The notes: generated from the letters alone by a model not told the origin. Shown: positions 5,550-51,886, counted from the first letter of the stretch. The stretch is DNA of 64,000 nucleotides from Candidatus Eiseniibacteriota bacterium (GCA_046598045.1 JBKJJJ010000162.1:17-64016), one strand, 5' to 3'. Numbers and translations: made by a program.

Positions 5550-6248
5550 GTGCACCACATGAAGCATGTTGCGATCGCGCTGTTCCTGGCGGTCCTGGGC
5601 CTGGTGGCTCCGCGGCCGCATGCCGCACAGGCGCAGACGCTTTTTGTCGACTACTTCGGCTACGACTACGAGTCGCCGAACCCGAACCCGTCGACGTTCG
5701 GCGAGCCGGGGAGCATCTACAACAGTCTCGGCCCCGCGCCGAACCTGTTCGCTCCGCTGGTGCCCGACACGGCGAACAACCAGTACACCTACTACATGAC
5801 CGCGCTGTCGCCGATCAACGTGCAGAATTTCGGCACGTACGTCGTGATCGACTACGCGCCGGGCGGCCTCTTCCAGGTTTGGGAGGACGCGAAGTCGAGC
5901 GGCACGCCGTACGATTACGGCGTGAATCCGCCCAATGCCACGGCGCCCGGGACGTTCACCGACGGGACCAAGTTCGTCGAGGGCTCGCTCGACCAGTTCC
6001 AGATCGTGCTCAACACGGCCACGGGGAGCGGCAGTTTCAACGCCATCTTCACGTTGACCGGCGGCTCGCAGCTGGTCAACGTCCCGGCGAATCAGCGCGC
6101 CGGCTGGACGTTCGCCGGCACGACCGCGAACGAATTGCGACGTCCCTCCGGCTACGACCACCAGGTCGACGGTCAGGTCTTCCTTAACGAACCGTCTCCC
6201 GCGCGGGCTTCGAGCTGGGGTTCGGTCAAGGCTCGCTACCGTCAGTAG
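5550..6248 (+). CDS. Secreted protein of unknown function with C-terminal ...SSWGSVKARYRQ tail (family member A)
   Basis: 232 aa; clear N-terminal signal peptide (MHHMKHVAIALFLAVLGLVAPRPHAAQAQ); paralog of next gene; ends with W-G-x-[LIV]-K-x-x-Y-R motif. Confidence 0.6.
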   Translation: MHHMKHVAIALFLAVLGLVAPRPHAAQAQTLFVDYFGYDYESPNPNPSTFGEPGSIYNSLGPAPNLFAPLVPDTANNQYTYYMTALSPINVQNFGTYVVIDYAPGGLFQVWEDAKSSGTPYDYGVNPPNATAPGTFTDGTKFVEGSLDQFQIVLNTATGSGSFNAIFTLTGGSQLVNVPANQRAGWTFAGTTANELRRPSGYDHQVDGQVFLNEPSPARASSWGSVKARYRQ

Positions 6249-6281: not shown

Positions 6282-6983
6282 ATGAAGCTTCGAAACCTGA
6301 TGACCAGCGCCCTGCTGCTGGGCGCCCTTGCGGCGGTGCCGGCGTTTGCCGGCCCGGCGATCGATTGGGATCCCGCGTTCGTGTATGGCCCCGGCGCAGC
6401 CGTCGGGGTCGTGACTCCCGGCACGGAGCTCCGTGGCGTGGGCATCGTGAGCGCGTTCGGCGGATCCCTCGCCGACCTCGACGCCAACGATCCAACCACC
6501 GAGTACACGTTCATCTTCCGTGGACTGATCGCGCAGCCGACCGCAGTCAGCGGTACGCCGGCGTACACGTTCTGGACGACCAACTACACGGGCGGGATCA
6601 TCGAGCTGTACGCGGGTTCGCCGCGCAACTCGTCGTTCGCCCCGAACCCGGAGAACGCGATTGTTCCGTCCACCTTCGAGGACGGTTCGTTGCTGCTCAA
6701 GGGCGTGTTCACGTCGTTCTACGTGCAGACCAACAACTTCACCGCCTTCCAGACCGGTAACATGGAGGGCAACGTGACCTGGACGGGCGGATCGCGGCTG
6801 GCCGCTGCAACCGGCGGCAGCAACGAGCCCTGCCCGGGCCTGTTCACGGGTGGCATCACGTGGCGGCCCTCGGTCCTGATTCCGGGCTACGTGTTCCGCC
6901 ACGATGGCAAGATCGACTTCAATTGCCCGGCGCCGGCAGCGCCGTCGACCTGGGGCAAGCTGAAGGCGCAATACCGCGACTGA
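6282..6983 (+). CDS. Secreted protein of unknown function with C-terminal ...STWGKLKAQYRD tail (family member B)
   Basis: 233 aa; signal peptide MKLRNLMTSALLLGALAAVPAFAG; RBS GGAGGA upstream; shares internal blocks with 5550..6248; same C-terminal motif. Confidence 0.6.
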   Translation: MKLRNLMTSALLLGALAAVPAFAGPAIDWDPAFVYGPGAAVGVVTPGTELRGVGIVSAFGGSLADLDANDPTTEYTFIFRGLIAQPTAVSGTPAYTFWTTNYTGGIIELYAGSPRNSSFAPNPENAIVPSTFEDGSLLLKGVFTSFYVQTNNFTAFQTGNMEGNVTWTGGSRLAAATGGSNEPCPGLFTGGITWRPSVLIPGYVFRHDGKIDFNCPAPAAPSTWGKLKAQYRD

Positions 6984-7263: not shown

Positions 7264-8175
7264 ATGCAGACTAAATTGCTTCGAATGTTGACGGCGGCGC
7301 TGCTCAGCGTGGCGATCTCGAGCGGCTCGGCCGCTGCCGACGAGCTCAGTATTCCCGCGGTGAACGCGGTGAACGCGAAGCCCTCGACGGTCCGGATCCA
7401 GATCAGGGCCGGCGCGACCGGGGCCCAGCAGGGCTTCACGGCCCAGTGGATGAAGCAGGCCGACTTCTACGCGCTCGGCGGCTGGCCGGTCCTCCCGAAC
7501 CCGGCGCTCAAGTCGGGCAACTTCATCGGCGTCCCGGTCTGGACGACCGATGGCGACGCGGGCGACTACACGCTCGAGCCCCAACAGTGGATCGAAGTCG
7601 AGCTCGGCCAGCTGTTCGACGAGACCGGGGTCGCGGCCACCTCGACGAGCGAGCTCGAGCCCGCCACGACGTATGTCGTGCGCGTCTTCGCCCGCGCGGC
7701 CGGCGGCTTCACACAGAGCCAGTTCAGCCCGACCGCGGCCGTCAACACGCTGGTCCAGACCCAGAACTGCACGTACACGCAGGGCTACTGGAAGAACCAC
7801 GCCAGCGCATGGCCGGTGACCAGCCTCACGCTCGGCACGGTGACCTACACCAAGGCCCAGCTGCTCGGGATCCTGAACGAGCCCGCCCGCGGCAACGGGC
7901 TGCTGATCCTGGCCCATCAGTTGATCGCCGCGAAGCTGAACCTCGCGATGGGCGCGAACGGGAGCTACATTGCGCCGACGATTGCGGCTGCCGACGCCCA
8001 GATCGGGTCGTTGATCATCCCGCCGACCGGTGGGGGCTATCTCCCGCCGTCCTCGACGAGCGCGAACGCGCACATCCTCGACGACTGGAACAACGGCATC
8101 ACGGGACCGGGACACTGCGGCACGACGCCGGCCCAGCCCTCGACCTGGGGCTCGCTGAAGGCTCTGTACCGCTAA
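7264..8175 (+). CDS. Secreted protein with FN3-like N-terminal domain, conserved 'NCTYTQGYWKNH' block and C-terminal ...PSTWGSLKALYR tail (family member C)
   Basis: 303 aa from internal ATG of ORF 6997..8175 (signal peptide MQTKLLRMLTAALLSVAISSGSAAA); ~65% identical paralog of 9213..10127. Confidence 0.65.
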   Translation: MQTKLLRMLTAALLSVAISSGSAAADELSIPAVNAVNAKPSTVRIQIRAGATGAQQGFTAQWMKQADFYALGGWPVLPNPALKSGNFIGVPVWTTDGDAGDYTLEPQQWIEVELGQLFDETGVAATSTSELEPATTYVVRVFARAAGGFTQSQFSPTAAVNTLVQTQNCTYTQGYWKNHASAWPVTSLTLGTVTYTKAQLLGILNEPARGNGLLILAHQLIAAKLNLAMGANGSYIAPTIAAADAQIGSLIIPPTGGGYLPPSSTSANAHILDDWNNGITGPGHCGTTPAQPSTWGSLKALYR

Positions 8176-9212: not shown

Positions 9213-10127
9213 ATGAAGTTTGGTATCGGTCGAATGGTGTTGGCGGCGCTGGTCGGCTTGGCATTCGCGGGTGGCCCGGCTGCGGCCCAGAAACTCGATT
9301 CCCCGACCCTCAGCACGATCAGCGCGAAGCCGTCCACGGTGCGTGTGCGGGTCAACGCGGGAGCGAGCGGAGCGCAGCAGGGCTTCACGGCGCAGTGGAT
9401 GAAGAAGTCCGACTTCGACGCGATGGGCGGCTGGCCGGCAGGGCCGAGCGCGCTCGTCCGCTCGGGCGACTTCGAAGGCATGCCGGTGTGGACGACCGAC
9501 GGGAACGGCGGCGACTACACGATCGCGGCCTCGGAGTGGATTGCGATCGAGCTCGGCCAGCTGTTCGACGAGACCGGCGTCTCCGCGACATCGACCGACG
9601 AGCTCGAGGCCGGTACCGACTACGTCGTGCATGTCACGGCGCGTGGTGGCGCGGGCTCTGCCGATAGCCAGCCTTCGAGCGACCTGATCGTCAGCACGCT
9701 GACGGCGGCCCGGAACTGCACGTTCACGCTCGGCTACTGGAAGAACCACACGGGTGCGTGGCCGGTGCTCAGCCTGACGCTCGGCACGGTGACCTACAAC
9801 CAGGCGCAGCTGCTGTCGATCCTGAACCAGCCCTCGGGCGGCAATGGGCTGATCATCCTCGCGCACCAGCTGATTGCGGCGAAGCTGAACCTTGCAAACG
9901 GCGCGAACCCGTCCTTCATCTCGCCGACGATCACGGCCGCGGATGCTCAGATCGGCGCGCTGGTCGTGCCGCCGGTTGGATCGGGCTACCTCTCGCCCGC
10001 TTCGACGAGTGCGAACGCGCACACGCTGGACGACTGGAACAACGGCATCACGGGTCCGGGACACTGCGCCTCGACGCCGGCGGCGAACTCGACCTGGGGC
10101 TCGATCAAGTCGCTCTATCGCCACTAG
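9213..10127 (+). CDS. Secreted protein, paralog of 7264..8175, C-terminal ...NSTWGSIKSLYRH tail (family member D)
   Basis: 304 aa from internal ATG with AAGGAGAAG RBS; signal peptide MKFGIGRMVLAALVGLAFAGGPAAAQ; shares NCTFTLGYWKNH and GPGHC blocks. Confidence 0.7.
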   Translation: MKFGIGRMVLAALVGLAFAGGPAAAQKLDSPTLSTISAKPSTVRVRVNAGASGAQQGFTAQWMKKSDFDAMGGWPAGPSALVRSGDFEGMPVWTTDGNGGDYTIAASEWIAIELGQLFDETGVSATSTDELEAGTDYVVHVTARGGAGSADSQPSSDLIVSTLTAARNCTFTLGYWKNHTGAWPVLSLTLGTVTYNQAQLLSILNQPSGGNGLIILAHQLIAAKLNLANGANPSFISPTITAADAQIGALVVPPVGSGYLSPASTSANAHTLDDWNNGITGPGHCASTPAANSTWGSIKSLYRH

Positions 10128-17791: not shown

Positions 17792-17901
17792 GGGGGGATC
17801 CTTCTGTGGATTTGGAGGTTGCGGCGCGGGGGTGGTTCAACGCGGGGGGCTGGACGAGGAGGACTCTCGCACACTTGAAAAACAAGCGTCAAGGCGGGAT
17901 A

Positions 17902-20089: not shown

Positions 20090-20226
20090 GCGGTGAGGCG
20101 GCGGAAGCCGCCGTGCTCGCGGGAATCGCGCTCGGCGCGCTCGGCGATTGACCCCCGGGCCGCAAGGCCTTATCCTTGTCCGGCGATCCCTTACTCACCC
20201 TTTCCGCATTTTCGGAACGACGACCC

Positions 20227-22671
20227 ATGTTCACCTCCCCCTCGCGACTGCGCCTCGTGCGCGGATTGCCCTCACTTGCCCTGCTCGCGCTCCTGGCGCG
20301 TCCGGGCGCGGCGGCCGGATATGACCCGTGGCCGCTCAGCCTCGACCCCGTGCGCGCGGCCGGGCTACACGCGCGCCTGAGCGGCGAGGAACTCCCGTTC
20401 GCGCTCGTGGCACCGTACGCGCAGGTTCCGATCGCGCCCGAGGCCGACGTACCGGCGACCACCCTGTCCGGATCCGGCTGGGAGGCGATCCCGCCACCCG
20501 CGCGCTGGGTGCACTCGACGATCTACGACCCGCTGCGCGACCGGCTCGTGGTGTTCGGCGGGCAGAGCTACACCGGCAACTCGAACGAGACCTGGGCGTT
20601 CTACCTGGGCGGCATTCCGCACTGGCAGAAGCTCTCGCCCTCCGGCACGCCGCCGTCGCCGCGCGGGTTCCAGAGCGCGATCTACGATTCGCTGCGCGAC
20701 CGCATGATCATCTTCGGCGGATCGGACGCATCCAGCGTATCCAAGAACGAGGTCTGGGCGCTGTCCTTCGCGGGCAACCCGACGTGGTCCTTGCTCGCGC
20801 CGACCGGCGCGTCACCCGCGCCGCGGACGTGGCACAGCGCGGTCTACGATCGCGCGCGCGACCGCATGCTGGTCATGGGCGGCCAGGTGGGCGGGGTCAG
20901 CGTGGGCGACGTGTGGGCGATGTCGCTCGCGGGCACGCCGGCGTGGACGCAGCTCGCGCCCACCGGGCCGGCCCCCGGGGGCCGCTCCGCGCACGCCGCG
21001 GTGTATGACGCCTCGGCCGACCGGCTGGTGATCTTCGGGGGGCTCGACGCGGCCGGGCAGCCGAGGAACGACGCCTGGTCCCTCGCGCTCGCGGGAACGC
21101 CCACGTGGAGCCAGCTCCTGCCGGCCGGCGCGCCCCCGTCCGCGCGCTACGGCGTGGCCGGGCTGTACGACCGCGTGCGCCAGCGCATGGTCGTGTTCGC
21201 CGGCGGAACCGGGGCGCCGAACCAGAACGATGCGTGGACGCTCTCGCTCGGCGCCAGCCCGGCGTGGACCGCGCTCGCGCCCTTGAATGCGCCGCAGGGG
21301 CGGCAATTCCACAGCGTCTCCTACGATCCGATCGGCGACCGCATGCTCGCGTTCGGCGGCTCGAGCGGGACGATTCTCTCCGACACGTGGGCGCTGCCGC
21401 TGGCGGCGCCGACCGCGTGGGTGCCGCTCTCGGGTACGCGACGCAAGGGCCACAGCGCTCTCTACGACAGCGCGCGCGGCCGCATGATCGTGTTCGGCGG
21501 CGAGAATGCGACCCCGCTCAACGACGTCTGGGATCTGTCGCTCGGCACCGTCTCAACCTGGTCGCGGCTGGCCCCCAACGGTACGCCCCCCACGCCGCGG
21601 ACGCTCCAGGGCGCGATCTACGAGCCGACGCGCGACCGCATCATCATCTTCGGCGGCCGCGACTCGGCGCCGCTGAACGATGCCTGGGAGCTTTCCCTCT
21701 CGGGTGAACTGGCGTGGCTCCCGCTCGCCCCGTTGGGCACGCCGCCCACGCCGCGCGAGGACGTCGCGACGGCCTACGACGAGCAGCGTAGCCGCCTGAT
21801 GGTGTTCGGCGGCGCCGACCTCGGAGGGGTGTACAACGAAGTCTGGGCGCTGTCGCTCTCCGGCACGCCGACCTGGACGAAGCTCACGCCCGCCGGCACC
21901 GCGCCCTCCGCGCGCGGCGGCGCGCACATGATCTACGACCATGCCCGCGACCGGCTCGTGGTCTACGGCGGCTTCGACCGCCTGTTCCTGCCGATCGGCG
22001 ACGTCTTCGCGCTCACGCTCTCGGGCACGCCGACGTGGACGAAGCTCCTCCCGACCGGCACCGCGCCCGCGCCGCGCTTCGCCGGCGCGGCGATCTACGA
22101 CCCGACGCGCGACCGCTTCCTGGTCTCGGGCGGGACGGACTTCGACCAGTACTTCAGCGACACGTTCGCGATCAATTTTTCGGGCGCGACCGGCGCAGGC
22201 TGGACCCCGCTGACGTTCGCGGGCACGATTCCCAGCTCGCGCTCCGACCACCGCGCGATCTACGACGTGGCGAGCGACCGCATGGTGTGCTTCGGCGGGC
22301 AGAGCCTGGGCGGTATCCTGCACGAGACCTGGGCGCTCGACTTCGCGAACACGGTCGACGTGCCGCCTGCGCCTGCTGCGCCCGCGCGCGTCACGCTCGA
22401 GGCCGCGCGGCCGAATCCCGCGCGCTCAGGCTCCGGCACGACGCTCGGCTTCGCGCTCCCCCGCGCGATGTCGCGGGTCGAGCTCGCGCTGTTCGACGTG
22501 TCGGGGCGGCGGGTTGCCGTGCTCGCGCGCGGCGCGTTCGAGGCGGGCCCTCACCCGGCGCGCTGGGACGGCAATGACGAAGCCGGCCGGCGGGTGCCGA
22601 CCGGCGTGTACTTCGCGCGGCTTCAGACCGAGGATGGGGTGGCGACCGGGAAGATCGTCGTCGCGCGCTAG
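20227..22671 (+). CDS. Secreted Kelch-repeat protein (>=12 Kelch-like repeats) with T9SS-type C-terminal sorting domain
   Basis: 814 aa from internal ATG (signal MFTSPSRLRLVRGLPSLALLALLARPGAAAG); repeated 'W..L.P.G..P.PR..H.AVYD...DR...FGG' units; C-terminus '...ELALFDVSGRRVAVLARG...ARWDGNDEAGRRVPTGVYFARLQTEDGVATGKIVVAR'. Confidence 0.8.
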   Translation: MFTSPSRLRLVRGLPSLALLALLARPGAAAGYDPWPLSLDPVRAAGLHARLSGEELPFALVAPYAQVPIAPEADVPATTLSGSGWEAIPPPARWVHSTIYDPLRDRLVVFGGQSYTGNSNETWAFYLGGIPHWQKLSPSGTPPSPRGFQSAIYDSLRDRMIIFGGSDASSVSKNEVWALSFAGNPTWSLLAPTGASPAPRTWHSAVYDRARDRMLVMGGQVGGVSVGDVWAMSLAGTPAWTQLAPTGPAPGGRSAHAAVYDASADRLVIFGGLDAAGQPRNDAWSLALAGTPTWSQLLPAGAPPSARYGVAGLYDRVRQRMVVFAGGTGAPNQNDAWTLSLGASPAWTALAPLNAPQGRQFHSVSYDPIGDRMLAFGGSSGTILSDTWALPLAAPTAWVPLSGTRRKGHSALYDSARGRMIVFGGENATPLNDVWDLSLGTVSTWSRLAPNGTPPTPRTLQGAIYEPTRDRIIIFGGRDSAPLNDAWELSLSGELAWLPLAPLGTPPTPREDVATAYDEQRSRLMVFGGADLGGVYNEVWALSLSGTPTWTKLTPAGTAPSARGGAHMIYDHARDRLVVYGGFDRLFLPIGDVFALTLSGTPTWTKLLPTGTAPAPRFAGAAIYDPTRDRFLVSGGTDFDQYFSDTFAINFSGATGAGWTPLTFAGTIPSSRSDHRAIYDVASDRMVCFGGQSLGGILHETWALDFANTVDVPPAPAAPARVTLEAARPNPARSGSGTTLGFALPRAMSRVELALFDVSGRRVAVLARGAFEAGPHPARWDGNDEAGRRVPTGVYFARLQTEDGVATGKIVVAR

Positions 22672-26959: not shown

Positions 26960-28408
<1,449 letters not shown>

Positions 28409-28412
28409 CGCG

Positions 28413-28910
28413 CTACACCACCTTCCCGTGCGCCGCTTCCGCCGCGGCGAGACGCAACTGCAGGAACCCGTGCATGGCCGGCTCGGAGCGCACCAGCGAC
28501 TTGAGCGACACGCGCGCGAGCGCGTCGTGCACCAGCCGATCGAGCCCCACCAGCACCGGGCGGATCGAGCAGTTGCCGTCGTGCGCGCAGCGGCCGCTCG
28601 CGCCGGCCATCGCCTGGATGCCCGCGTGCTCGCCGCAGAATTTGTTGGAGTAGAGTCGCCCGCCCAGCGCCACGATCACCTCGGAGAGGTCGATCGCATC
28701 GGCCGGCCGCGCCAGCGCGTAGCCACCCTTCTGCCCGCGGCTCGCCGTCACCAGCCCGGCGCGCTTGAGGACGCCCATGAGCTTCGCGACGTATGCGGGG
28801 GTCAGACCCTCGGCCTTCGCGATCTCGTGGATGGTCCCGAGCGCGTCGGGGTGGTGCGCCAGCCGCACGAGGCAGCGCATGCCGTATTCTTCCTGGGAGG
28901 AGAGCTTCAT
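28413..28910 (-). CDS. Rrf2-family transcriptional regulator with CX12CX5C cluster-ligand motif (IscR/SufR-like)
   Basis: 165 aa from internal ATG of ORF 28413..29015; wHTH '[18 protein letters not shown]...'; C-terminal '[23 protein letters not shown]'; first gene of suf operon. Confidence 0.8.
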
Positions 28911-28917
28911 GCCCTGA

Positions 28918-28938
28918 TTTTGTCCAAAGTGGACAAAA
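28918..28938 (-). promoter_or_regulatory. Perfect palindrome TTTTGTCCA-aag-TGGACAAAA immediately upstream of Rrf2/suf operon start (candidate Rrf2 operator)
   Basis: 9-bp arms, 3-bp spacer, 8 nt from start codon. Confidence 0.45.
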
Positions 28939-29015
28939 CAGTCAAGTACCCCGCGGACCGGCCTCGCGAAACCGAATTCGGTGTAAATCGTTGCGGTGCA
29001 ACGGCAAAATGTCAT

Positions 29016-29087: not shown

Positions 29088-29732
29088 CTAGCGATACAGC
29101 CCCTTCACCCGCCCCCACGTCCCGCTCAGGGTCGGTGTTGCGGCCTCGCAGTACCCCATCCCCGCCAGATTGATCGTGTACGGGTTGAGCGGCTGGACGT
29201 TTGGCGTTCCCGCCCAGCCGGTCAGGGTGCCGGCCGCGCCCGGGCCGTCCGGGGAGCGCTGACCGAGCGGGCCGGACAGCCAGATCGCGCCGCCCGCCGA
29301 TTGCGCGTCGAAGCCCGAGTAGGACACCGCGACGTAGTAGGTCCCCGCGGGGAGCGAGGTGTTCGGGGCGACGATCGTCTTGCTGCCGAACTGGCAATTC
29401 TGGTTCAGGAAGACACCGTTCCCGAGCGCGTCGAACAGCCAAATGTTCGGCCCGCTGATCACGACGCACTGGAGCTGGACGATGGGCTGGCCGGCCGGCG
29501 GGACCGACAGGAGGTTGACGCAGTACAGGTCGACGTCCGTGGGCGAGCCGAGCGCGCCGGTGATCTTTTGCAGGGGGCCGTTCCCGACCGTGCTCTGCGC
29601 GGAGGCGACGAGGTCCCCCGCGTCCCCGGATTCGGCCCAGGTCTGGGCGCGGGCGACGGGGGGGGCAGCCAGCGTGAGCAGCAGGGCGGCGGCGAACGCC
29701 AGGAGGCGGGAATGCTGTTGAATCGTGGCCAT
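29088..29732 (-). CDS. Secreted PPC (pre-peptidase C-terminal)-like domain protein with C-terminal ...GTWGRVKGLYR tail (family member E)
   Basis: 214 aa from internal ATG; signal peptide MATIQQHSRLLAFAAALLLTLAAPPVARAQ; 'DVDLYCVNL...GTYYVAVSYSG' resembles PPC domain; ends with W-G-x-V-K-x-x-Y-R. Confidence 0.65.
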   Translation of the reverse strand: MATIQQHSRLLAFAAALLLTLAAPPVARAQTWAESGDAGDLVASAQSTVGNGPLQKITGALGSPTDVDLYCVNLLSVPPAGQPIVQLQCVVISGPNIWLFDALGNGVFLNQNCQFGSKTIVAPNTSLPAGTYYVAVSYSGFDAQSAGGAIWLSGPLGQRSPDGPGAAGTLTGWAGTPNVQPLNPYTINLAGMGYCEAATPTLSGTWGRVKGLYR

Positions 29733-29798
29733 GGGGGCTCCCGAATCGATCTGCGGCCGGGGGGATCCCGGCCGCGGCCAACGAGCATAGCACAAACC

Positions 29799-29897
29799 CC
29801 GGTGCGATCGGCGCTCGCCCCCGACGCCCCGCCCCGCCCGCCGCGCCCGCCCCGCCCGCCGCGCGAGCAGCGCCAGCCGAAAACAGGACGCAGCCTC
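29799..29897. repeat. Duplicated segment (copy of 31899..31969, with internal 21-bp tandem duplication of CCGCCGCGCCCGCCCCGCC)
   Basis: ~70 nt shared string ...CGACGCCCCGCCCCGC...CGCGCGAGCAGCGCCAGCCGAA[AA/GG]CAGGACGC[A/G]GCCTC...; second copy lies inside 3' coding part of 31794..32780. Confidence 0.7.
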
Positions 29898-29951
29898 ACG
29901 GTGTGGAGCGGCGTCGGCCCGCGGGGCGGGTGGGTGGCGCCCTGGAACTGG

Positions 29952-30557
29952 TTAGAGCACTCGCCGCATGATCGCCCGCCCCTTCGACACGCGCTTGACC
30001 TCGACGAAGCCCGCTCTCACGAACGCACTCACCGTGCCCTGGTAGGCATAGGCGTCGGGCCAACGCGCCTTGGGGTCGCTCGGGTAGCCCTCGAGAATTC
30101 TGCCCTTCCTGCGGCGGACGAACCTCGCGGCAGCCTCGAGCAGCGCGACGGTGACCCCCTGCCTGCGATACGGCCGCGCGACGTAGAAGCACGTGATCGA
30201 CCACACCGGCTGGTCGTCGATCGGCTGGAGCGTGCGCGAGCGCGCGAGCCCGCCGTACTCCTCGCGCGGGGCGAGCGCGCACCAGCCGACAGGCGTCCTG
30301 CCGACGTAGGCGAGCAGGCCGGGCTCGTCGCCGTCCTTTGCGAGCTTCTTGAACGCACGCTTGTTGCCTTTGCCGCCGTCGGCGCAACCGGCGGCCCACT
30401 CCGCGCGCGAGCGGCGAAAGAACATGCACCAGCAGCCGCCGTACGCGCCCTTGGGACCGAACACGGTCTCGAGGTCGGGCCAGCGCTCGGGTGTGAGTGG
30501 GCGGACCATGACGCGGACCGGCGGGGCCTTCGGCTTCGCGGCTCGCGGGGAGGGCAT
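29952..30557 (-). CDS. GNAT-family N-acetyltransferase
   Basis: 201 aa from internal ATG of ORF 29952..30779; 'GWCALAPREEY...RRQGVTVALLEAAARF' acetyl-CoA binding-like block. Confidence 0.6.
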   Translation of the reverse strand: MPSPRAAKPKAPPVRVMVRPLTPERWPDLETVFGPKGAYGGCWCMFFRRSRAEWAAGCADGGKGNKRAFKKLAKDGDEPGLLAYVGRTPVGWCALAPREEYGGLARSRTLQPIDDQPVWSITCFYVARPYRRQGVTVALLEAAARFVRRRKGRILEGYPSDPKARWPDAYAYQGTVSAFVRAGFVEVKRVSKGRAIMRRVL

Positions 30558-30567
30558 CGCTTCTGGC

Positions 30568-31500
30568 CTAACGGTAGGCGGACTTGATCCGGCCCCATGT
30601 CGCCACGCGTGCGGGCACGGGAGCGGCACCGAACACCTGGACCCGGTTGTTGCCCTTGTCGACGACGTAGATCCGGCCATCAGGCCCGACCGCAAGATCC
30701 TCGACCCTGTTGAATTGCCCGGGGCCCGAGCCCGCTGATCCGAATTGCCCCAGGAAAACACCGTTGTTGTCGTAGACACGAACGACGTTTCCGAGCTGAT
30801 CAGCTCCGTACACGTTGCCCGCCAAGTCGACCGCGAGACGGCCCGAGGCCGCGGGCCACCGCATGATCACCGCAAAGTTGGCATCGCGCTTGACGATCTG
30901 GGGCTGGGTCGCCCCGGGCGGATAATACTGCACGTGAAAGAGGTTTCCGGCGGCATCGTAGACGGCGCCGAAAAACGGATTTCCATCGCAGCGCTCCGGA
31001 GATACGAAGGCTCCGCCCGACGTGAATTTTCGAATGCATCCCGCGTTGAACTCGTACTTGAAGCACACGTTTCCGGCTGGATCCATGGTGACTTCCTGGC
31101 CGTACGAAGAAGTCGTCGCGGCGTTCCAGTAGTACTGATAGGTGCCATTCCCGTCGTACTTTTGGATGGTATGAGCCGCCTGCACGAATACGCTGCCATC
31201 GGCCGCGACGGTGAGATCCCCGATTTCGGTCATGGATCGCGCGTTGTTCCACTTCGTCACGAAGTGACCGCCCGCGTCGAACTTTTCGATGCGCTGATTG
31301 CCCCCGTCGAGCACGTAGACGTCGCCCGTGGGCCCGATCGAGATACTGCTCGGCGACGAGAACTGCCCGTCGCCTGAACCGAATGACCCGAAGCTGAACA
31401 GGAAATCGGTCGCGACCGCGTGCGCGGCGGTGAGCGGCAAGGACACCGTCACAACGACGGCCAACATACCGATCATGCGAGGCAACGCTCGGTGACCCAT
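30568..31500 (-). CDS. Secreted NHL-repeat beta-propeller protein with C-terminal ...ATWGRIKSAYR tail (family member F)
   Basis: 310 aa; signal peptide MGHRALPRMIGMLAVVVTVSLPLTAAHA; NHL-like repeats (GSGDGQF, GSGPGQFNRVEDLAVGPDGRIYVVD); same tail motif. Confidence 0.75.
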   Translation of the reverse strand: MGHRALPRMIGMLAVVVTVSLPLTAAHAVATDFLFSFGSFGSGDGQFSSPSSISIGPTGDVYVLDGGNQRIEKFDAGGHFVTKWNNARSMTEIGDLTVAADGSVFVQAAHTIQKYDGNGTYQYYWNAATTSSYGQEVTMDPAGNVCFKYEFNAGCIRKFTSGGAFVSPERCDGNPFFGAVYDAAGNLFHVQYYPPGATQPQIVKRDANFAVIMRWPAASGRLAVDLAGNVYGADQLGNVVRVYDNNGVFLGQFGSAGSGPGQFNRVEDLAVGPDGRIYVVDKGNNRVQVFGAAPVPARVATWGRIKSAYR

Positions 31501-31570: not shown

Positions 31571-31783
31571 CTAAATGCCTCTGCCGGATCCGGCAAAGTG
31601 ACCGCCATCGAACTGCTCGAAAGAAGTGGGACCTGCCTTGAACATGCACCAGCAGCAGCCGTCGGCGCCCTTCAGGCCGAAGGCGGTCTCGAGGTCAGGC
31701 CAGCGTTCGGGGGTGAGCGGGCGGACGGTGACGCGAAGACGTTTCGCAGGCGGACGCGGTGCGGCTGCTTTCGGGGCGGGCAT
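31571..31783 (-). pseudogene. Truncated duplicate of GNAT acetyltransferase N-terminus (remnant)
   Basis: First ~48 aa (MPAPKAAAPRPPAKRLRVTVRPLTPERWPDLETAFGLKGADGCCWCMF) ~70% identical to N-terminus of 29952..30557, then diverges to stop; ~150 nt nucleotide similarity to 30421..30557. Confidence 0.5.
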
Positions 31784-31793
31784 CGCGATTCGC

Positions 31794-32780
31794 TTATCGG
31801 TAGCCGGCCGCCAGCTCGCCGGCGATCGCCTCGAGGGCGAGGGCGCGGCGCTCGGCCTCGGCCGGGCCGCTCGGGAGCGCCGGGACCCACTCGAGGTTGC
31901 GCTCGCCCTCGACGCCCCGCCCCGCGCGCCGCGCGAGCAGCGCCAGCCGAAGGCAGGACGCGGCCTCCCAGGTCGCCACATGGCGCGGGGTGGCGAGCCC
32001 GCCGGCCAGGCGGTACGCCTCGAGCACCGCCGTCCCGTCGAAGCTCCCGCTCCCGTTCCTCAGCGCGCGCAGCCGCTCGTGGGCGAGCAGGTTCCCGAGG
32101 TCGAGCCCGATCGGCGCCAGCGCGGCCTCGTCCCAATCGATCCATCCCACCGGCGCGGCGGCCTCGGCCGGCGCCTCGGCGGGAGGCGCGATCACCTGTT
32201 CCTCGTTGAGATCGCGGTGGGCCGGCGCCGATCCAAGGGCATGCTCACTCTCGGCGAGCCGGGCGAAGAGCGCGGGCGTGAACGGCGGCAAGGCGCACGC
32301 GAGTTCCTCCGCGAGGTTCGTGAGCCCCTCGGCTTCGTGGTCAGCGGTCCACTCCCGGGACGGCCAGAGGGCACGCGCGGTGTCGGAACGTTCGAGCGCG
32401 GCCAGCGCGGCCACGCTCCTCGCCAGTTCGCTGGCGCGCCGGGGGCCTTCCGGGAGCGCGGAGAGCGCGGCGCCCGGAAACGCGCCCAGGACCAGGCGGC
32501 CCTCCGCGGCGCACGAATCAACCAGCGGCGGGACGCGCGGAAGGCGGGGCGCGTCGGGGCCACCCTGGGCGAGCGCCGCGGCCAGCGCCTGGTAGTGCGC
32601 GATCAGGCGCGCGGCGCGCTCGGGGCGGACGGTCTTGACGAACCAGCCCTCCTCCACCTCGCGCCGCCCGTCCACCAGGCGGGTTCGCCCGAGGAACATC
32701 GCCTCGCGGCGCCCGGGCCGGCGCTTGATCACGTGCTGCTCGAACGGGACGCCGCCCCGGTCCAGCGTGGGAAGGTTCAC
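31794..32780 (-). CDS. Phosphotransferase-family (APH/choline-kinase-like) protein
   Basis: ~328 aa; 'HRDLNEEQV' catalytic-loop-like and 'IDWDEAALAPIGLDLGNLL' motif; GTG start overlapping stop of upstream ABC gene (GTGA). Confidence 0.55.
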   Translation of the reverse strand: MNLPTLDRGGVPFEQHVIKRRPGRREAMFLGRTRLVDGRREVEEGWFVKTVRPERAARLIAHYQALAAALAQGGPDAPRLPRVPPLVDSCAAEGRLVLGAFPGAALSALPEGPRRASELARSVAALAALERSDTARALWPSREWTADHEAEGLTNLAEELACALPPFTPALFARLAESEHALGSAPAHRDLNEEQVIAPPAEAPAEAAAPVGWIDWDEAALAPIGLDLGNLLAHERLRALRNGSGSFDGTAVLEAYRLAGGLATPRHVATWEAASCLRLALLARRAGRGVEGERNLEWVPALPSGPAEAERRALALEAIAGELAAGYR

Positions 32781-35754: not shown

Positions 35755-36971
35755 GCGGCTCCCGCGAACCATGCGGCCAGGCACTCGACGTTGGTCGCGA
35801 GATCGAAGCGCTCCTCCGCACGCTGACGCGCGGCGAAACTCATGCGCGCGAGCGTCTCCGGGTCCCCCAACAGGTCGCCCAGCGCCCTGGCGAGCGCAAC
35901 CGCATCGCCGGGCTCGACCAATCGTCCCTCGATTCCGTCGCGAACGATTTCCGGATTGCCGGTGACCGGGGTCGTGACGCAGGGCACGCCCGATGCCAGG
36001 GCCTCGAGCAGGACGGTCGGCAGGCCGTCGCGATTCCCGTCGGCGGCCACGCGGCAGGGCAGGCAGAACACGGCAGCCTCCGCCATCAGTGCGCGCACGC
36101 GATCCTGGGATTGCGGACCCTCGAAGGTGACGGAGTCCGCGATGCCTTGATCGCGGGCGAGCGCGCGCAGGCGTGCGTCCTCCGGCCCGTCCCCCACCAG
36201 CACCAGCCGGGCGCGCGGGATCCGGACGCGCACCGCGGGCCAGGCCCTGAGCAGGTCGTCGAAGCCCTTCTTCTCGACCAGGCGTCCGACCGCGAGCACG
36301 ACGGGGTCGCGGGTTTCGATCGAAGCCCCCGCGGGCCGAAACTCGCGCAGGTCGACACCGTTGTAGAGCCGGCGCAGGTTGCCGTTCGCACCCGGGCCGT
36401 AGAGCTGCGCGAGGTAGGCCCGGTTGAAGTCACTCACCGTCACCACGAAGCTCGCCGCGCGCATCTTGTCGCGCAGGAGGTCGAGGTCGGTGCTGTCCTG
36501 GTAGATGTCCTTGGCATGCGCGGTGAACGAGAACGGCGTGCCCGTCAGCTGCGACGCGAACATGGCAACGCGCGAGGGCGCGCTCGCGAAGTGTGCGTGC
36601 ACGTGCTGCACGGGGTGCGCCGCCAGGTCCCGCGCCATCGTCGCCGCCTGGAAGTAACGCTTCCACGCCTGGTGCGTGCCGCGCGAGGCCACGTAGGAAA
36701 GCAGCGGAAACCCCCGTACTGCGTCCTGCCCGAGATAGGGAAGGATCGCGCCGACGCCCCGTGAGAGCCAGTGGATCGGGCGTTCGGGCAGGTACACCAC
36801 GCGCGCGCGCAGGCGCGCGAGCGCCGGATGGGTCGGGCTCGAGGCCAGCGGATGCTTGAGCGAGTAGACCGTGAGCGTGTGCCCGCGACTCTCGAGCTCG
36901 AGCAACTCGTTCAGGATGAAGGTCTCGGAGAACCGGGGGAACATCTTGACGACGTACGCGAGGGCACTCAT
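35751..36971 (-). CDS. Glycosyltransferase family 4 (GT-B)
   Basis: 406 aa from internal ATG (MSALAYVVKMFPRFSETF...); 'VGRLVEKKGFDDLLRAW...LVLVGDGPE...LPCRVAADGNRDGLPTVLLEALASGVPCV'; ATGA overlap with upstream gene. Confidence 0.8.
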   Translation of the reverse strand: MSALAYVVKMFPRFSETFILNELLELESRGHTLTVYSLKHPLASSPTHPALARLRARVVYLPERPIHWLSRGVGAILPYLGQDAVRGFPLLSYVASRGTHQAWKRYFQAATMARDLAAHPVQHVHAHFASAPSRVAMFASQLTGTPFSFTAHAKDIYQDSTDLDLLRDKMRAASFVVTVSDFNRAYLAQLYGPGANGNLRRLYNGVDLREFRPAGASIETRDPVVLAVGRLVEKKGFDDLLRAWPAVRVRIPRARLVLVGDGPEDARLRALARDQGIADSVTFEGPQSQDRVRALMAEAAVFCLPCRVAADGNRDGLPTVLLEALASGVPCVTTPVTGNPEIVRDGIEGRLVEPGDAVALARALGDLLGDPETLARMSFAARQRAEERFDLATNVECLAAWFAGAA

Positions 36972-38188
36972 CCGACGCGGGCCTCCATCCGCACGCCGCG
37001 CTCGGCCAGGAGATCGCGAATCTCGAGGCTGACCTGCGCCGCGCCGTCCGTGCCGAACGGCAGGTCGTCGCTGCGCGGGCCGAGTTCGAGCGCGAGCGCG
37101 ATCTCGGCGGCGAGCCGCTCCGGCGTGGCGTGGTCGGGATGTACGACCCGGCACAGGCCGCGCTCGGCCATGGCCTGGGCGCGAATCCACTGCTCGAGCC
37201 GCGGGGTCACCCGCGGCACGACGACGGCAGGCACGCGCGCCGACAGGATCTCGGTCATCGAGTTGTATCCCGCCATCGAAACCACCACGTCGGCGGCGTG
37301 GACCAGCCGCGGCAGGTCCGGCTCGAAGTCGATGACGTGCACGCGCTCGAGGCCGGCAGCGCGGTCCTTGAACGACTGCGCCTGGACGGCCGACATCAGC
37401 GGCCCGGTCACCGCCAGCAGGGTCGCATCCGGGGGCACGGGGGCCGCCCAGGCATCGAGCAAGGCCCCGATCACCCGCTCCCCGTCGCCGCCGCCGCCGA
37501 TGGTCGCGACCACGAGGCGTTCGCCCGGATCGATCGCGTGGTGGAGCCGCAGGTCCGAAGCCGCGGCGCACGGTTCGGACCACAGCACGTACTGCGTGAA
37601 GCGCACGCGCCCGTTGAGGCGCGGCGACAGGCCGTATTCCTCGGGCGAGGGGCCGACGCCGGGCGCGCCGTAGACCAGCACGCGGTCATAGGTGCGGTCC
37701 ATCCAGTCGAGCAGGCCGTCCCGCTCCCAATCCAGGCGCACGCGCACGGGATCGTCGATCACGTCGCGCAGGCCGAGCACCAGGCCGGCGGCGGGCTGCG
37801 CCTGGCGCAGGTGATCGAGCGGAACGCGCAGCTCGCCCGACATCCCGGCCGGTGCGTGGTCGACGATCAGGACGTCGGGCCGGAACGAGGACAGCGTCTG
37901 GTCGATCAGGCGCGAGCGGAAGTCCGCGACCTCGGCGAGCGACATGTCCAGCGAGCGCGCGCGGTAGGCGCCGTCCTCCGACTTGGTCACCGAGGGCACC
38001 TTGACGAAGTCGAAGCGCGGCGGCAGGGCAAACGCGTGCGCCTGGGGGGAGCCGGTCAGCGCCAGCAAATGCGCGTCGGGAAAGTCGCGCGCGAGCCGGT
38101 GAGCCAGCGTCAGGTTGCGGCGCAGGTGGCCCAGACCGAAGGTGTCGTGTCCGTAGAGCGCGATCCGAGGTCCGCGTCGCACGGTCAC
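36968..38188 (-). CDS. Glycosyltransferase, GT-B fold (GT28/MGT-like)
   Basis: 406 aa in 3' part of ORF 36968..39151; 'RIALYGHDTFGLGHLRR' N-terminal Gly-rich motif, C-terminal 'VVSMAGYNSMTEILSARVPAVVVPR' donor-binding-like region; GTG start overlapping upstream stop. Confidence 0.6.
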   Translation of the reverse strand: MTVRRGPRIALYGHDTFGLGHLRRNLTLAHRLARDFPDAHLLALTGSPQAHAFALPPRFDFVKVPSVTKSEDGAYRARSLDMSLAEVADFRSRLIDQTLSSFRPDVLIVDHAPAGMSGELRVPLDHLRQAQPAAGLVLGLRDVIDDPVRVRLDWERDGLLDWMDRTYDRVLVYGAPGVGPSPEEYGLSPRLNGRVRFTQYVLWSEPCAAASDLRLHHAIDPGERLVVATIGGGGDGERVIGALLDAWAAPVPPDATLLAVTGPLMSAVQAQSFKDRAAGLERVHVIDFEPDLPRLVHAADVVVSMAGYNSMTEILSARVPAVVVPRVTPRLEQWIRAQAMAERGLCRVVHPDHATPERLAAEIALALELGPRSDDLPFGTDGAAQVSLEIRDLLAERGVRMEARVG

Positions 38189-38868
38189 TCCAGCACCAGC
38201 ACACGAACACGGCTGGCGGCCTGCACGCCGGCGGGGAGCCGCAGCTTGACGCGCCAGGCATAGCGGCCGGCAGGCACCGGGGCGCCAACATAGGAGCCCT
38301 GGTTGCCGAGGCCGTTCCACCCCGCCTGGGACTGCGTCCCCTGGGGCGAGGCCCACGCCAGGACGCCCAGCGAGTCGTCCACGCGCGCACTCGACCAGAG
38401 ATAGGTGCCCTGGTATGCGCTCCACTGGAAAGTCAGCGCGCTCGAGAACGTGGGGCGCGCCTGGACCGTCGAATCGGCCGGCGCCACGAGATCGAAACCG
38501 CGCGCATCGACGTCGAACGGCGGAATCGCCACGGACTGGCCGGCGGTCGTGATGTCGAAGAAGAAGCGGACGTAACCCAGGTCCGAGGCCAACGTCGGCG
38601 AGACCTTGACCAGCCAGTGCCCCGGCCCGACGCCGGCGAATCCATACGCGCCCGCGCCGTCGGTCAGGGTCGAGTCGACCTGCGACTGTTCGAGATCGTC
38701 GTAGAGCTTGACCTTCATCCCGGGGACCGCCACGCCCGCGCGCACGACGGTGCCGCTCACGGTCTCGGGCGGCGACGGCCCGGCGACCTCGCGCGACGCG
38801 CCGCAACCGGCGAGCACGACCGCCAGGACGAGTGCGCCGGTCGCGCGGCCGCGATCGTTCAGCGTCAC
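38185..38868 (-). CDS. Lipoprotein with carboxypeptidase-regulatory-like (CarbopepD_reg) domain (cassette copy 1)
   Basis: 227 aa from GTG overlapping PQQ gene stop; lipobox-like 'LVLAVVLAGC'; 'GTVVRAGVAVPGMKVKLYDD...TDGAGAYGF'; 228-aa paralog at 47239..47925. Confidence 0.6.
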   Translation of the reverse strand: MTLNDRGRATGALVLAVVLAGCGASREVAGPSPPETVSGTVVRAGVAVPGMKVKLYDDLEQSQVDSTLTDGAGAYGFAGVGPGHWLVKVSPTLASDLGYVRFFFDITTAGQSVAIPPFDVDARGFDLVAPADSTVQARPTFSSALTFQWSAYQGTYLWSSARVDDSLGVLAWASPQGTQSQAGWNGLGNQGSYVGAPVPAGRYAWRVKLRLPAGVQAASRVRVLVLE

Positions 38869-40298
38869 GGCAGCACCACCAGGGCGCGGGCCACGCTCGC
38901 GCCGTCGGCGGACAGCCGCACCCGGTAGACGCCGGGAGCGACGCGCTGCCCGCGTCCATCCTCGAGATCCCACGACGCGGACTGTTCCGCGCCGGTGGCG
39001 TCGCCCTGCCACAACCACGCGACGATGCGGCCGCGCACGTCGAACACTTCAAGGCTCGCCGGGGCGCCGGCCGGAGCGCGGAAGGAGACGGAAGCACGCG
39101 TGCGCGCCGGCTGCGGGAACGGCGCGGCAAGCGCGACCCGCGCGGCCGCACCCGGCGCGCGCCCCACGCCGACCAGCGGCGGGCCGAGCGCGAACAGCTT
39201 GCCGTTCTTGGCGCCGAAGAACACCGCGCCGTCGGCCGCGATCGCGGCCGAGGAACGCACGGCCGCTCCGGCAGCGAACTTCCAGCGCAGGCTCCCCCCC
39301 GCGTTCAGGCAATAGAACGTCGAGTCATCCGACCCGAAGTAGACCGTGCCGTCGGCGGCGACGACCGGCGACGAGCGAATCACGTTACGCGCATAATAGC
39401 GCCACAGCACCGCGCCGTTCGCCGGCGCGAGCGCGGCCACGTGGGAGCCGGTCGCGACCACGATCGAGCCGTCGGCGCGGATCGCCGGCGTGGTGTCGAC
39501 GTTCGCGGTGTCGCTGAAGACCCACTTCAGGGCCCCCGTCGGCCGCAGGGCATAGAGGAAGCGGTCCTCGCTCCCCTGGTAGATCGTCGAATCCTCGGCC
39601 ACGGCCGGAGACGCCAGGTCGATGATGGCGCCGGTGGTCCCGAACCAGAGCTGCGTCCCCGCCGGCGTGATCGCGTAGATGCGCGCGTCGTAGGACCCGA
39701 CATAGATGTCCCCGAGCGGTCCGAGCGCGGGCGAGGAGCGCACGTTGCCTCCCGTGGGGAACGACCACACCGGGGCGCCGGCCGCGGTGAAGCGGTACAG
39801 CAGGTTGTCGCCATTGCCGGCCAGGACGTCCCCCGAGGGGAGGATCAGCGGCGAGGACCGGAACGTGCTCCCGCCGCGAAATTTCCAGCGCAGGGTGCCG
39901 CTCACGTTGACCGCGTAGAGCGTTGAATCCATCGAACCGACGTAGATCGTCCCATCGGCGGCCACCGCGGGGCTCGAGAACCGGATCGGCCCGTTGGTGG
40001 CGAACGCCCAGTGCAGCACACCGTCGGGCTGCACGGCATAGAGCTTTCCGTCGTCGCAGCCCACGTACACGGTCCCGTCCGCGCCGAGCGCGGGTGAAGA
40101 GCGGTCGATCGAGTCCGCCGCCTGGAAGATCCAGCGCAACTGCGGGGATGCCAGCCCCGGGGCGCTCGAGCGGCCCCGGTGCGCGGCACCGCCGTGAAAC
40201 ATCGGCCAGGGCGAGGGCGCGAGCTGCGCCTTCGACGGGGAGGCCGCCGCACTGAGCAGCAGGGTCAGCAGGACAATGGAGTTCCATCGGGATCGCAT
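38865..40298 (-). CDS. Secreted PQQ-like beta-propeller repeat protein with T9SS-type C-terminal domain (cassette copy 1)
   Basis: 477 aa from internal ATG (signal MRSRWNSIVLLTLLLSAAASPSKAQ); repeated 'DGT.Y.GS.D..LYA' PQQ/BamB-like units; C-terminus '...LEVFDVRGRIVAWLWQG...APGVYRVRLSADGASVARALVVLP'; paralog of 47922..49370. Confidence 0.75.
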   Translation of the reverse strand: MRSRWNSIVLLTLLLSAAASPSKAQLAPSPWPMFHGGAAHRGRSSAPGLASPQLRWIFQAADSIDRSSPALGADGTVYVGCDDGKLYAVQPDGVLHWAFATNGPIRFSSPAVAADGTIYVGSMDSTLYAVNVSGTLRWKFRGGSTFRSSPLILPSGDVLAGNGDNLLYRFTAAGAPVWSFPTGGNVRSSPALGPLGDIYVGSYDARIYAITPAGTQLWFGTTGAIIDLASPAVAEDSTIYQGSEDRFLYALRPTGALKWVFSDTANVDTTPAIRADGSIVVATGSHVAALAPANGAVLWRYYARNVIRSSPVVAADGTVYFGSDDSTFYCLNAGGSLRWKFAAGAAVRSSAAIAADGAVFFGAKNGKLFALGPPLVGVGRAPGAAARVALAAPFPQPARTRASVSFRAPAGAPASLEVFDVRGRIVAWLWQGDATGAEQSASWDLEDGRGQRVAPGVYRVRLSADGASVARALVVLP

Positions 40299-40305
40299 GT
40301 GCGCC

Positions 40306-44826: not shown

Positions 44827-44857
44827 GGGTTCGCGCACGAGGGCGACCTCCCGAAAT

Positions 44858-50335: not shown

Positions 50336-50446
50336 TCGAGTCTCCACTCGCAGGGAACCCCCCGACCGCTTCGCGCCGGATGACGGCGACCGGCAGAGGC
50401 TGTCCCGTAGGTGGATCGAAGGGGGTTGGAAATACAAGACTCTCGC

Positions 50447-50474
50447 GGGGAGGAGAAGCGGGGAGGAGAAGCGG
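50447..50474. repeat. Tandem direct repeat GGGGAGGAGAAGCG x2 upstream of cassette copy 2
   Basis: Seen in 180-nt intergenic region between subtilisin stop and OMP start. Confidence 0.4.
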
Positions 50475-50516
50475 GGAGGGCCGGTTCCGGGCGGGGATCC
50501 CGGGCCGGCGATCGGC

Positions 50517-51854: not shown

Positions 51855-51886
51855 GACTCCGCTCCGGGGTGTGGGATCGATTCCGT

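Follow-up and report, generated by a model that had tools for sequence, protein, structure and literature searches.

Two genes on the minus strand of a 64,000-nucleotide stretch of DNA from Candidatus Eiseniibacteriota bacterium (GCA_046598045.1 JBKJJJ010000162.1:17-64016; the whole stretch is called the window below) encode predicted secreted proteins, P_E and P_F, whose passenger domains are unrelated to each other and which end in the same kind of short tail, of the form WGxxKxxYR. P_E closes with ...CEAATPTLSGTWGRVKGLYR (also written ...GYCEAATPTLSGTWGRVKGLYR) and P_F with ...FGAAPVPARVATWGRIKSAYR (also written ...VQVFGAAPVPARVATWGRIKSAYR); a tail peptide is written out as PVPARVATWGRIKSAYR. 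An earlier note had described these two open reading frames (ORFs) and their tails, had attributed a signal peptide and a Pro/Ala linker to each protein, and had named the passengers PPC-like (pre-peptidase C-terminal) and NHL beta-propeller. Both ORFs and both ends were confirmed, and the description of the proteins was borne out as well. As read from the sequence, the two N-termini combine a positively charged n-region, a hydrophobic core and an AxA-type site, as is typical of Sec signal peptides, with predicted cleavage between ...APPVARA and QTW in P_E and between ...LTAAHA and VAT in P_F, and a lipobox is absent from both. In its longest version the P_E ORF starts at a TTG at 29795.

P_E has no Pfam domain and matches NCBIfam only below threshold (DVUA0089/FDP family). 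Its AlphaFold2 (AF2) model, based on 74 sequences, reaches a predicted local distance difference test score (pLDDT) of 88 and shows a beta-sandwich core at residues 31-194, preceded by a helix at residues 3-22. The PPC-like label is supported by this fold, since the best Foldseek matches in the PDB are collagen-binding and PPC domains of clostridial collagenases (3jqw with an E-value of 5.7e-5, then 1nqd and 5sv5). P_F is an NHL protein according to Pfam (E 4e-16), with a weaker NCBIfam match to "ScyF, PEP-CTERM protein", and its model (50 aligned sequences, mean pLDDT 90) is a propeller of 24 strands in six blades at residues 32-291. In both models the tail lies outside the fold, as a predicted short helix of 8 residues on a flexible linker, and the passenger is modelled with high confidence up to its end. 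The last strand of P_E ends at residue 194 and is followed by coil at 195-205 (pLDDT below 50 at 200-204) and by a helix from W206 to Y213 with a pLDDT of about 51; in P_F residue 291 closes the last strand of the propeller, and coil at 292-301 (pLDDT about 76) and a helix from W302 to Y309 (pLDDT about 77) follow. The positions of these and other features are collected in Table 1.

Table 1. Genes and features discussed in the text, in window coordinates.
Feature	Position	Strand	Basis
Gene P_E, secreted PPC/collagen-binding-like beta-sandwich, 214 aa from MATIQQ	29088..29732	(-)	ORF, AF2, Foldseek
P_E predicted signal peptide, residues 1-29, MATIQQHSRLLAFAAALLLTLAAPPVARA	29646..29732	(-)	read from sequence
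P_E pre-linker Cys and Pro/Thr linker, C195 EAATPTLSG 204	29121..29150	(-)	pLDDT, homologue alignment
P_E tail TWGRVKGLYR	29091..29120	(-)	stop at 29088-29090; predicted helix 206-213
Gene P_F, secreted six-bladed NHL beta-propeller, 310 aa	30568..31500	(-)	ORF, Pfam, AF2
P_F predicted signal peptide, residues 1-28, ...VSLPLTAAHA	31417..31500	(-)	sequence reading; low-pLDDT N-terminus before propeller
P_F linker GAAPVPARVA, residues 291-300	30601..30630	(-)	coil between last propeller strand 286-291 and tail helix
P_F tail TWGRIKSAYR	30571..30600	(-)	stop at 30568-30570; predicted helix 302-309, pLDDT ~77
Tail SWGSVKARYRQ, protein A (gene 5550-6248)	6213..6245	(+)	regex match
Tail TWGKLKAQYRD, protein B (gene 6282-6983)	6948..6980	(+)	regex match
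Tail TWGSLKALYR, protein C (gene about 7264-8175)	8143..8172	(+)	regex match
Tail TWGSIKSLYRH, protein D (gene about 9213-10127)	10092..10124	(+)	regex match
Large protein with FlgD_ig/Por_Secre_tail-type C-terminal domain	13880-17836	(-)	Pfam, CTD HMM
Large protein with FlgD_ig/Por_Secre_tail-type C-terminal domain	17806-19989	(+)	Pfam, CTD HMM
Large protein with FlgD_ig/Por_Secre_tail-type C-terminal domain	20152-22671	(+)	Pfam, CTD HMM
Large protein with FlgD_ig/Por_Secre_tail-type C-terminal domain	38868-40583	(-)	Pfam, CTD HMM
Large protein with FlgD_ig/Por_Secre_tail-type C-terminal domain	47925-49370	(-)	Pfam, CTD HMM
SlipAM-containing gene group	49388-50713, 50517-52274, 47239-48003	(-)	Pfam

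When the window is read in all six frames, the pattern WG..K..[YFW] occurs exactly six times, each time 0-1 residue from a stop codon, in genes ending at 6248, 6983, 8175 and 10127 on the plus strand (proteins A to D) and at 29088 and 30568 on the minus strand (P_E and P_F). By chance 0.04 matches per window would be expected, and in 100 dinucleotide-Markov simulations these were never terminal. Synonymous codons vary among the six tails (GGT/GGC/GGG, TAC/TAT, CGT/CGC, ACC/ACG/ACA/AGC) and no sequence is kept 3' of the six stop codons; the conservation therefore lies at the protein level rather than in a repeated DNA or RNA element. An Rfam scan of the window gave no match and no noteworthy terminator or promoter pattern was found in it at the DNA level, which together with the synonymous codons led us to reject an RNA- or DNA-level feature.

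The family of P_E offers an unbiased view of the tail, since its members were collected from 5.8 billion proteins with the passenger and without reference to the motif. The search returned 220 homologues, the best named one (81% identity) being from Candidatus Eisenbacteria. Among the 119 tails of this family Trp and Tyr are invariant (119/119 each), Gly is found in 116/119, a hydrophobic residue at +3 in 119/119, and the basic position is Lys in 114 and Arg in 5. Six of these proteins end on the Tyr itself, 71 have one residue after it and 42 have two. Further upstream a Cys stands at -11 in 117/119 and a Pro at -6 in 97/119.

A scan of genomes (one per species, GTDB) with a DNA pattern back-translated from the motif, stop codon included, gave at least 127 matches at at least 118 loci, nearly all of them the ends of long ORFs. 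Over these loci and the window, 884 kb read in six frames, the pattern [ST]WG.[ILVM][KR]..[YFW] occurs 148 times, and 145 of these occurrences lie 1-2 residues before a stop codon. By their deposited labels, the carriers among the matches listed are mostly Eisenbacteria, and also Krumholzibacteriota, Latescibacterota, Zixibacteria, metagenome-assembled genomes (MAGs) labelled Gemmatimonadota and Fibrobacteraceae, and two complete Poribacteria chromosomes; also listed are a few single matches, on short contigs from other bins, that may be mis-binned. The tail is spread over several phyla, at loci with a G+C content of 43-74%, and several loci per MAG were found among the matches listed, while three of four independent loci with P_E orthologues carry further tail genes within 10 kb of them. 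A rough extrapolation from the six copies in 64 kb and from the local density suggests on the order of a hundred tail proteins per genome.

The A/B pair of the window recurs in tandem in at least six other genomes (loci L009, L012, L030, L046, L078 and L115); neither of the two proteins has a Pfam domain, they are distant relatives of each other, and a Ser/Thr kinase-TPR gene adjoins the pair in the window (2196-5357(+)) and likewise in L012, L046 and L115. In Poribacteria (L002; OZ251518.1, 295-3472) tandem small secreted proteins end in ...TTWGSLKKAYR, ...TTWGKLKQAR and ...TTWAGIKAAY without the Pro-rich linker, a degenerate and divergent variant of the tag outside the phyla of the Fibrobacteres-Chlorobi-Bacteroidetes (FCB) type.

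A 30-position profile made from the six window tails alone was searched against 1.84 billion representatives of 50%-identity clusters (E ≤ 1e-3) and found 321 distinct proteins. The motif is terminal in 141 of the 146 matches that were retrieved; of the others, four have short extensions and one (P0249, 653 aa) is spurious, being the translation of a tandem DNA repeat (ASPSSWGRVHRG... / RPLPGGEFIEA...) that probably reflects a mis-called ORF over a repeat array. Further replacements of the Lys by Arg were seen among the profile matches. In rare cases the motif is extended by 4-30 residues, e.g., ...TWGGLKSRYRRERGAAQNATQGR (L116 at about 1786 on the plus strand, P0152, P0286, P0358 and P0383), and such copies possibly represent lost stop codons or decaying tags. 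A tail variant ending in "...IRYGx" could hint at a receptor that co-evolves with it; the neighbouring tail gene in L124 is canonical and P0117 is degenerate, and we drew no lineage-specific pattern of co-variation from these.

The tail goes together with export. A signal-peptide-like N-terminus was recognized by a heuristic of hydrophobicity and charge in 118 of 134 tail ORFs, and most of the other 16 belong to a set of 17 ORFs truncated at the end of a locus. The tail proteins have a median length of 240 aa, and a lipobox-like site was found in 4/122. After removal of the signal peptide and of the last 22 residues, the 122 complete carriers fall into 66 BLAST clusters, and in a joint alignment of the carriers W, G, K and Y form the only invariant columns, with T and R at 90% or more.

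An extended logo was drawn from one representative per cluster (n=66), with positions counted from the Trp; only the positions not forced by the scan pattern, and the P_E family, are unbiased. Upstream of the core it shows [PA] at -8, [VT] at -7, P at -6 (54%), [VTA] at -5, [ERK] at -4 and then two variable residues, and the core itself reads T-W-G-x-[IVL]-K-[SA]-[LIM]-Y-R-COOH, the Lys being 100% conserved in the scanned set. A Cys is present at -9 to -12 in 38/66 families (58%) and anywhere in the 22 upstream residues in 42/66 (64%). This pre-linker Cys (e.g., Cys195 of P_E, window 29148-29150) always has an upstream Cys partner, and the total number of Cys is even in 57/80 carriers. It probably pairs in a disulfide that fastens the end of the passenger and is probably not a site of modification; for the same reasons (the constant partner and the mostly even counts) a free Cys for MYXO-CTERM-like lipidation is not supported.

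The earlier note had argued that the tail is a portable module, i.e., a sorting or anchoring signal, and not part of one protein fold. Portability holds: the tail is a C-terminal module of about 20 residues, further instances of which occur at 118 or more genomic loci, on 66 unrelated passenger families and in 321 profile matches, and structure prediction places it in neither fold as an integral strand, modelling a separate helix after a linker of about 10 residues. The sorting or anchoring role we infer, on good support, from the observations that follow. The opposite view, that there is no module and that chance similarity, repeated DNA or an integral strand of each domain created the impression of one, found no point in its favour; it is ruled out by the simulations (0.04 expected versus six observed), by the synonymous codons, by the AF2 models and by the 66 families, and we regard its probability as next to nil.

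The passengers form a typical surface or extracellular repertoire. Pfam recognizes among the 122 carriers LTD (9), beta-helix (7) and NHL (5) domains as well as NosD, CBM20, TED, Cleaved_Adhesin, CHRD and M10/M12B peptidases. NCBIfam adds choice-of-anchor families V, L, J and Y, the GlyGly-CTERM nuclease ExeM, an MXYO-CTERM-anchored family, the ScyF PEP-CTERM NHL protein, and rhombosortase- and myxosortase-dependent metalloproteases. The name "choice-of-anchor" is given in NCBIfam to domains that are found with alternative C-terminal anchors. The NHL proteins behave in a comparable manner: 28 of the top 120 homologues of P_F end in the tail, and others end in a FlgD_ig domain as used by the type IX secretion system (T9SS) (P0132, P0143 and P0153, of which P0143 is from Krumholzibacteria), in a C-terminal transmembrane anchor (P0139, P0155 and P0199), or in nothing. 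Anchor swapping occurs inside this one family.

The same alternation is seen between proteins. A hidden Markov model (HMM) of the T9SS-like C-terminal domain (CTD), built from genes neighbouring the tail genes, detects 51 ORFs in 35/119 loci, including five in the window, and none of the 122 tail proteins, so that tail and CTD are alternatives. Proteins with a CTD are also longer (median 635 aa versus 240 aa). About a quarter of the roughly 45 genes of the window carry a C-terminal sorting module, five the T9SS-type CTD and six the tail; two of the five CTD proteins have Kelch/galactose-oxidase-like propellers.

Tail and T9SS CTD (TIGR04183 Por_Secre_tail/FlgD_ig-like type A) have in common that they lack a transmembrane segment and sit on Sec-exported proteins of FCB-type bacteria; genomes with the tail use the CTD too, and both occur within the NHL family. 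The CTD, however, is a folded beta-sandwich of 70-100 residues, while the tail comprises about 10 residues plus the linker and is predicted to be helical, and the two were never found on one protein. We therefore rejected the tail as a T9SS CTD of the TIGR04183/PF18962/PF13860-like kind, as no CTD model covers it, the CTD HMM matched 0/122, and AF2 predicts a short helix. It might still act as a minimal or indirect T9SS signal, read by a SprA-type translocon directly or through docking on CTD cargo, since the carrier genomes are rich in CTDs (35/119 loci, five genes in the window) and the passenger repertoire resembles T9SS cargo. We consider this improbable: the T9SS signals known are folded Ig-like domains of about 70-100 residues with no match among the tail proteins, the NCBIfam and Pfam T9SS models leave the tail uncovered, and CTD genes seem to be no commoner near tail genes than their general abundance predicts. 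Moreover, Poribacteria, which are not known to use the T9SS, carry the variant tail.

Small C-terminal sorting signals have been characterized by seven hallmarks (Haft, 10.1101/2023.06.07.544157), of which the tail displays five: C-terminal location (6/6 in the window, 145/148 in the 884 kb, 141/146 profile matches), several copies per genome (six in the 64-kb window, several loci per MAG), at least three near-invariant residues (W, G, K and Y, in agreement with the unbiased P_E family), an N-terminal signal peptide on most carriers (118/134), and carriers that are otherwise unrelated (66 clusters among 122). Absent are a hydrophobic transmembrane segment after the motif, as the proteins end 0-2 residues past the Tyr, and a basic cluster of 2-5 residues at the end, where there is a single terminal Arg that is missing in part of the P_E family. 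A tripartite sortase-type signal was rejected on these two grounds.

The likeness to the tripartite systems (PEP-CTERM/exosortase, GlyGly-CTERM/rhombosortase, MYXO-CTERM/myxosortase, PGF-CTERM/archaeosortase and LPXTG/sortase) is nevertheless considerable: they too use a short module at the extreme C-terminus with a near-invariant signature and many copies, on signal-peptide carriers that share nothing else, and the kinds of passengers are alike and include homologues of PEP-, GlyGly- and MYXO-CTERM proteins. In contrast to them, the tail has no hydrophobic transmembrane segment or Arg cluster, ends in ...YR and is unmatched by the NCBIfam models. An intramembrane protease cannot read the tail, because nothing holds it in the membrane. 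No model of Pfam-A 2025 or NCBIfam 20.0 lies over the tail, either with the six full proteins (E ≤ 1) or with seven isolated tails (E ≤ 10), and we found no description of it in the published literature, by motif or under sorting signals or T9SS in Eisenbacteria, Latescibacteria and Krumholzibacteria. The tail was accordingly classified as an uncatalogued, probable C-terminal sorting signal with a previously undescribed architecture.

Other envelope motifs at the C-terminus that are rich in aromatic and basic residues invite comparison. The beta-signal of outer membrane proteins (...GxxΦxΩ) is read by BAM, and the Braun lipoprotein Lpp ends in ...YRK, with the terminal Lys linked to peptidoglycan by L,D-transpeptidases. 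A beta-signal was rejected, since the passengers are soluble folds and not barrels, the terminal Arg is not aromatic, and the distance from Gly to the aromatic residue does not fit, Lys standing at G+3. An Lpp-type end was likewise rejected: the terminal residue is Arg or variable, and the Lys is internal and replaced by Arg in 5/119 P_E homologues. The broader proposal that tail proteins become covalently attached, via the Lys or the C-terminus, to peptidoglycan or another polymer in the manner of Braun lipoprotein draws on the superficial likeness of the Tyr-Arg end and on the complete conservation of the Lys in the scanned set. The Lys lies four residues from the end, however, and the homologues with Arg in its place keep the tail, as do more of the profile matches, which fits a need for charge and not for a nucleophile; no YkuD-type gene was seen beside the tail genes. 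We judge covalent attachment very improbable.

The strictly C-terminal position could also be that of a degron or a stress-sensor ligand read by a PDZ protease of the DegS/Prc type, an idea we find hardly credible. Recognition by PDZ domains depends on the last residue and on position -2, but the register after the Tyr varies from 0 to 2 residues. Known Prc ligands are nonpolar and known DegS ligands are of the YxF type, unlike the polar ...YR end of the tail, and more than 60 unrelated binding and hydrolase modules of extracellular type are unlikely to keep a degradation tag under purifying selection.

The predicted helix itself suggests a different and simpler possibility, namely that it inserts as an in-plane anchor into the outer leaflet of the inner membrane or into the outer membrane (membrane lipid or lipopolysaccharide) with no receptor involved. 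In E. coli, PBP5 and PBP6 have an exported soluble domain with a C-terminal amphipathic helix as membrane anchor, and the AF2 helix on its flexible linker would fit such a role. On a helical wheel (residues from the logo, geometry worked out by us) W, [IVL], [LIM] and Y fall inside an arc of 120 degrees, with K and R beside it, and no partner gene was seen near the tail genes. A helix of about 9 residues would be far shorter than known in-plane anchors (the helices of PBP5/PBP6 have roughly double this length); it has a mean hydrophobicity close to zero and a moderate hydrophobic moment of 0.40-0.47. Generic helices moreover keep their character and not the identity of their residues; the PBP5/PBP6 helices are poorly conserved, whereas the tail has five near-invariant positions across unrelated families, with W, G, K and Y kept over 66 families and several phyla. 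Insertion into the membrane would also leave the limit of 0-2 residues at the C-terminus unexplained. Because residue identity and not just amphipathicity is conserved, and because the position is so strict, specific recognition is favoured over generic membrane affinity, and we consider an in-plane anchor unlikely.

Specific recognition of short elements by one receptor is well known from docking systems, e.g., the secretin S-domain and its pilotin, dockerin and cohesin, or the peroxisomal signal PTS1 (-SKL-COOH) and the TPR domain of PEX5. The logic is the same, with a short C-terminal element that is disordered until bound and is shared by many cargoes, and PTS1 likewise needs a free C-terminus. 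There is no similarity in sequence, and the tail would act in the periplasm or at the surface of a bacterium instead of in the peroxisome or cellulosome, so that we take this as analogy and not as homology.

On balance we think it rather probable that the tail is a docking or sorting tag of Sec-exported proteins, read by a receptor, in Eisenbacteria and allied uncultured diderm phyla. The module would consist of an optional Cys, a linker of the pattern [PA]-[VT]-P-[VTA]-[ERK]-x-x, and the core T-W-G-x-[IVL]-K-[SA]-[LIM]-Y-R-COOH. In the mechanism we propose, the N-terminal signal peptide would carry the protein over the inner membrane and the passenger (PPC-like, NHL, beta-helix, LTD and others) would fold in the periplasm, in many cases with a disulfide securing its end. 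The flexible, Pro-rich linker could then present an amphipathic helix of 9 residues, with S/T as N-cap, W/[IVL]/[LIM]/Y as hydrophobic face and K and R at its flanks, which would have to lie within 0-2 residues of the free C-terminus. A dedicated envelope component would read the helix and lead the protein to a tether in the envelope or at the cell surface, or to an export route across the outer membrane. This tail route might run parallel to the T9SS-type CTD on larger proteins of the same genomes and serve as an alternative to it. More tentatively, and possible rather than probable in our view, the tail could mark a dedicated and undescribed sorting pathway in which a periplasmic or outer-membrane receptor or a transpeptidase reads TWGx[IVL]KxxYR-COOH. 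It is conceivable to a similar degree that such a pathway would deliver small proteins, by the rough extrapolation about a hundred in each genome, to the surface and be confined to Eisenbacteria, Krumholzibacteriota, Latescibacterota and uncultured phyla close to them.

Several observations weigh against the proposed tag or limit the case for it. No receptor, sortase-like enzyme or translocon was found near tail genes in windows of 8-20 kb, and an all-vs-all BLAST of 2,482 ORFs from the 118 loci and the window returned as recurrent neighbours only FlgD_ig-CTD proteins, Ser/Thr kinase-TPR proteins, ABC ATPases and aminotransferases. The neighbourhoods of four P_E orthologues share no genes, and Pfam annotation of 20 further ORFs of the window gave no sortase-like, PDZ-protease or YkuD candidate. 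Between 0 and 2 residues follow the Tyr, and part of the P_E family does without the final Arg, which speaks against lock-and-key recognition of the last residue. The conservation seen in the genome scan is inflated, as the pattern itself demanded T, W, G, K, Y, R and the stop codon, and all carriers are metagenome-assembled genomes. Finally, the tail helix is an AF2 prediction at a pLDDT of 51-77, and an analysis of the hydrophobic moment does not separate helix from strand.

P_F and P_E lie in a minus-strand order of a 5' remnant of a GNAT gene, P_F, an intact GNAT gene (29952-30557), P_E, a regulator of the Rrf2 family (28413-29015) and the suf operon (SufB at 26960-28408). The remnant at 31640-31735 and the start of the intact GNAT gene at 30420-30515 are 85% identical over 96 nt, and a GC-rich direct repeat of 52 nt (92%) at 29846-29897 and 31916-31967 brackets the region of the NHL gene. 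From these repeats the P_F region seems to stem from a local duplication or insertion, and the P_F-GNAT arrangement is present in a second assembly too. Elsewhere in the window, the match to a SlipAM barrel (Slam-like surface-lipoprotein assembly modulator, E 5.5e-6) lies next to genes for an S8 subtilase, a CarboxypepD_reg protein and a protein with a CTD, and may belong to a surface-export cluster unrelated to the tail. A homologue of CapA/PGA_cap (poly-gamma-glutamate capsule synthesis) and a GT28-type glycosyltransferase are located between ABC exporters (43678-45459(-), 36968-39304(-)), which hints at a locus for an envelope polymer.

Bacterial surface proteins are predicted mainly from C-terminal sorting signals, among them LPXTG, PEP-CTERM and the T9SS CTD, and every such signal discovered so far has brought a new sorting enzyme or secretion machine to light. 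Eisenbacteria and their relatives occur widely in soil, sediment and groundwater; the carriers found here are uncultured. Recognition of the tail, through a simple motif or HMM usable in annotation, gives a probable location in the envelope or at the surface to hundreds of their "hypothetical" proteins, and the tail is a clean target for phylogenetic profiling toward its machinery. As a short tag of about 10 residues without a membrane segment it could serve for compact display or docking once its partner is known. If a dedicated pathway does exist, the tail would add a third class to the C-terminal sorting signals of bacteria, next to the tripartite signals of the sortase type and the T9SS domain.

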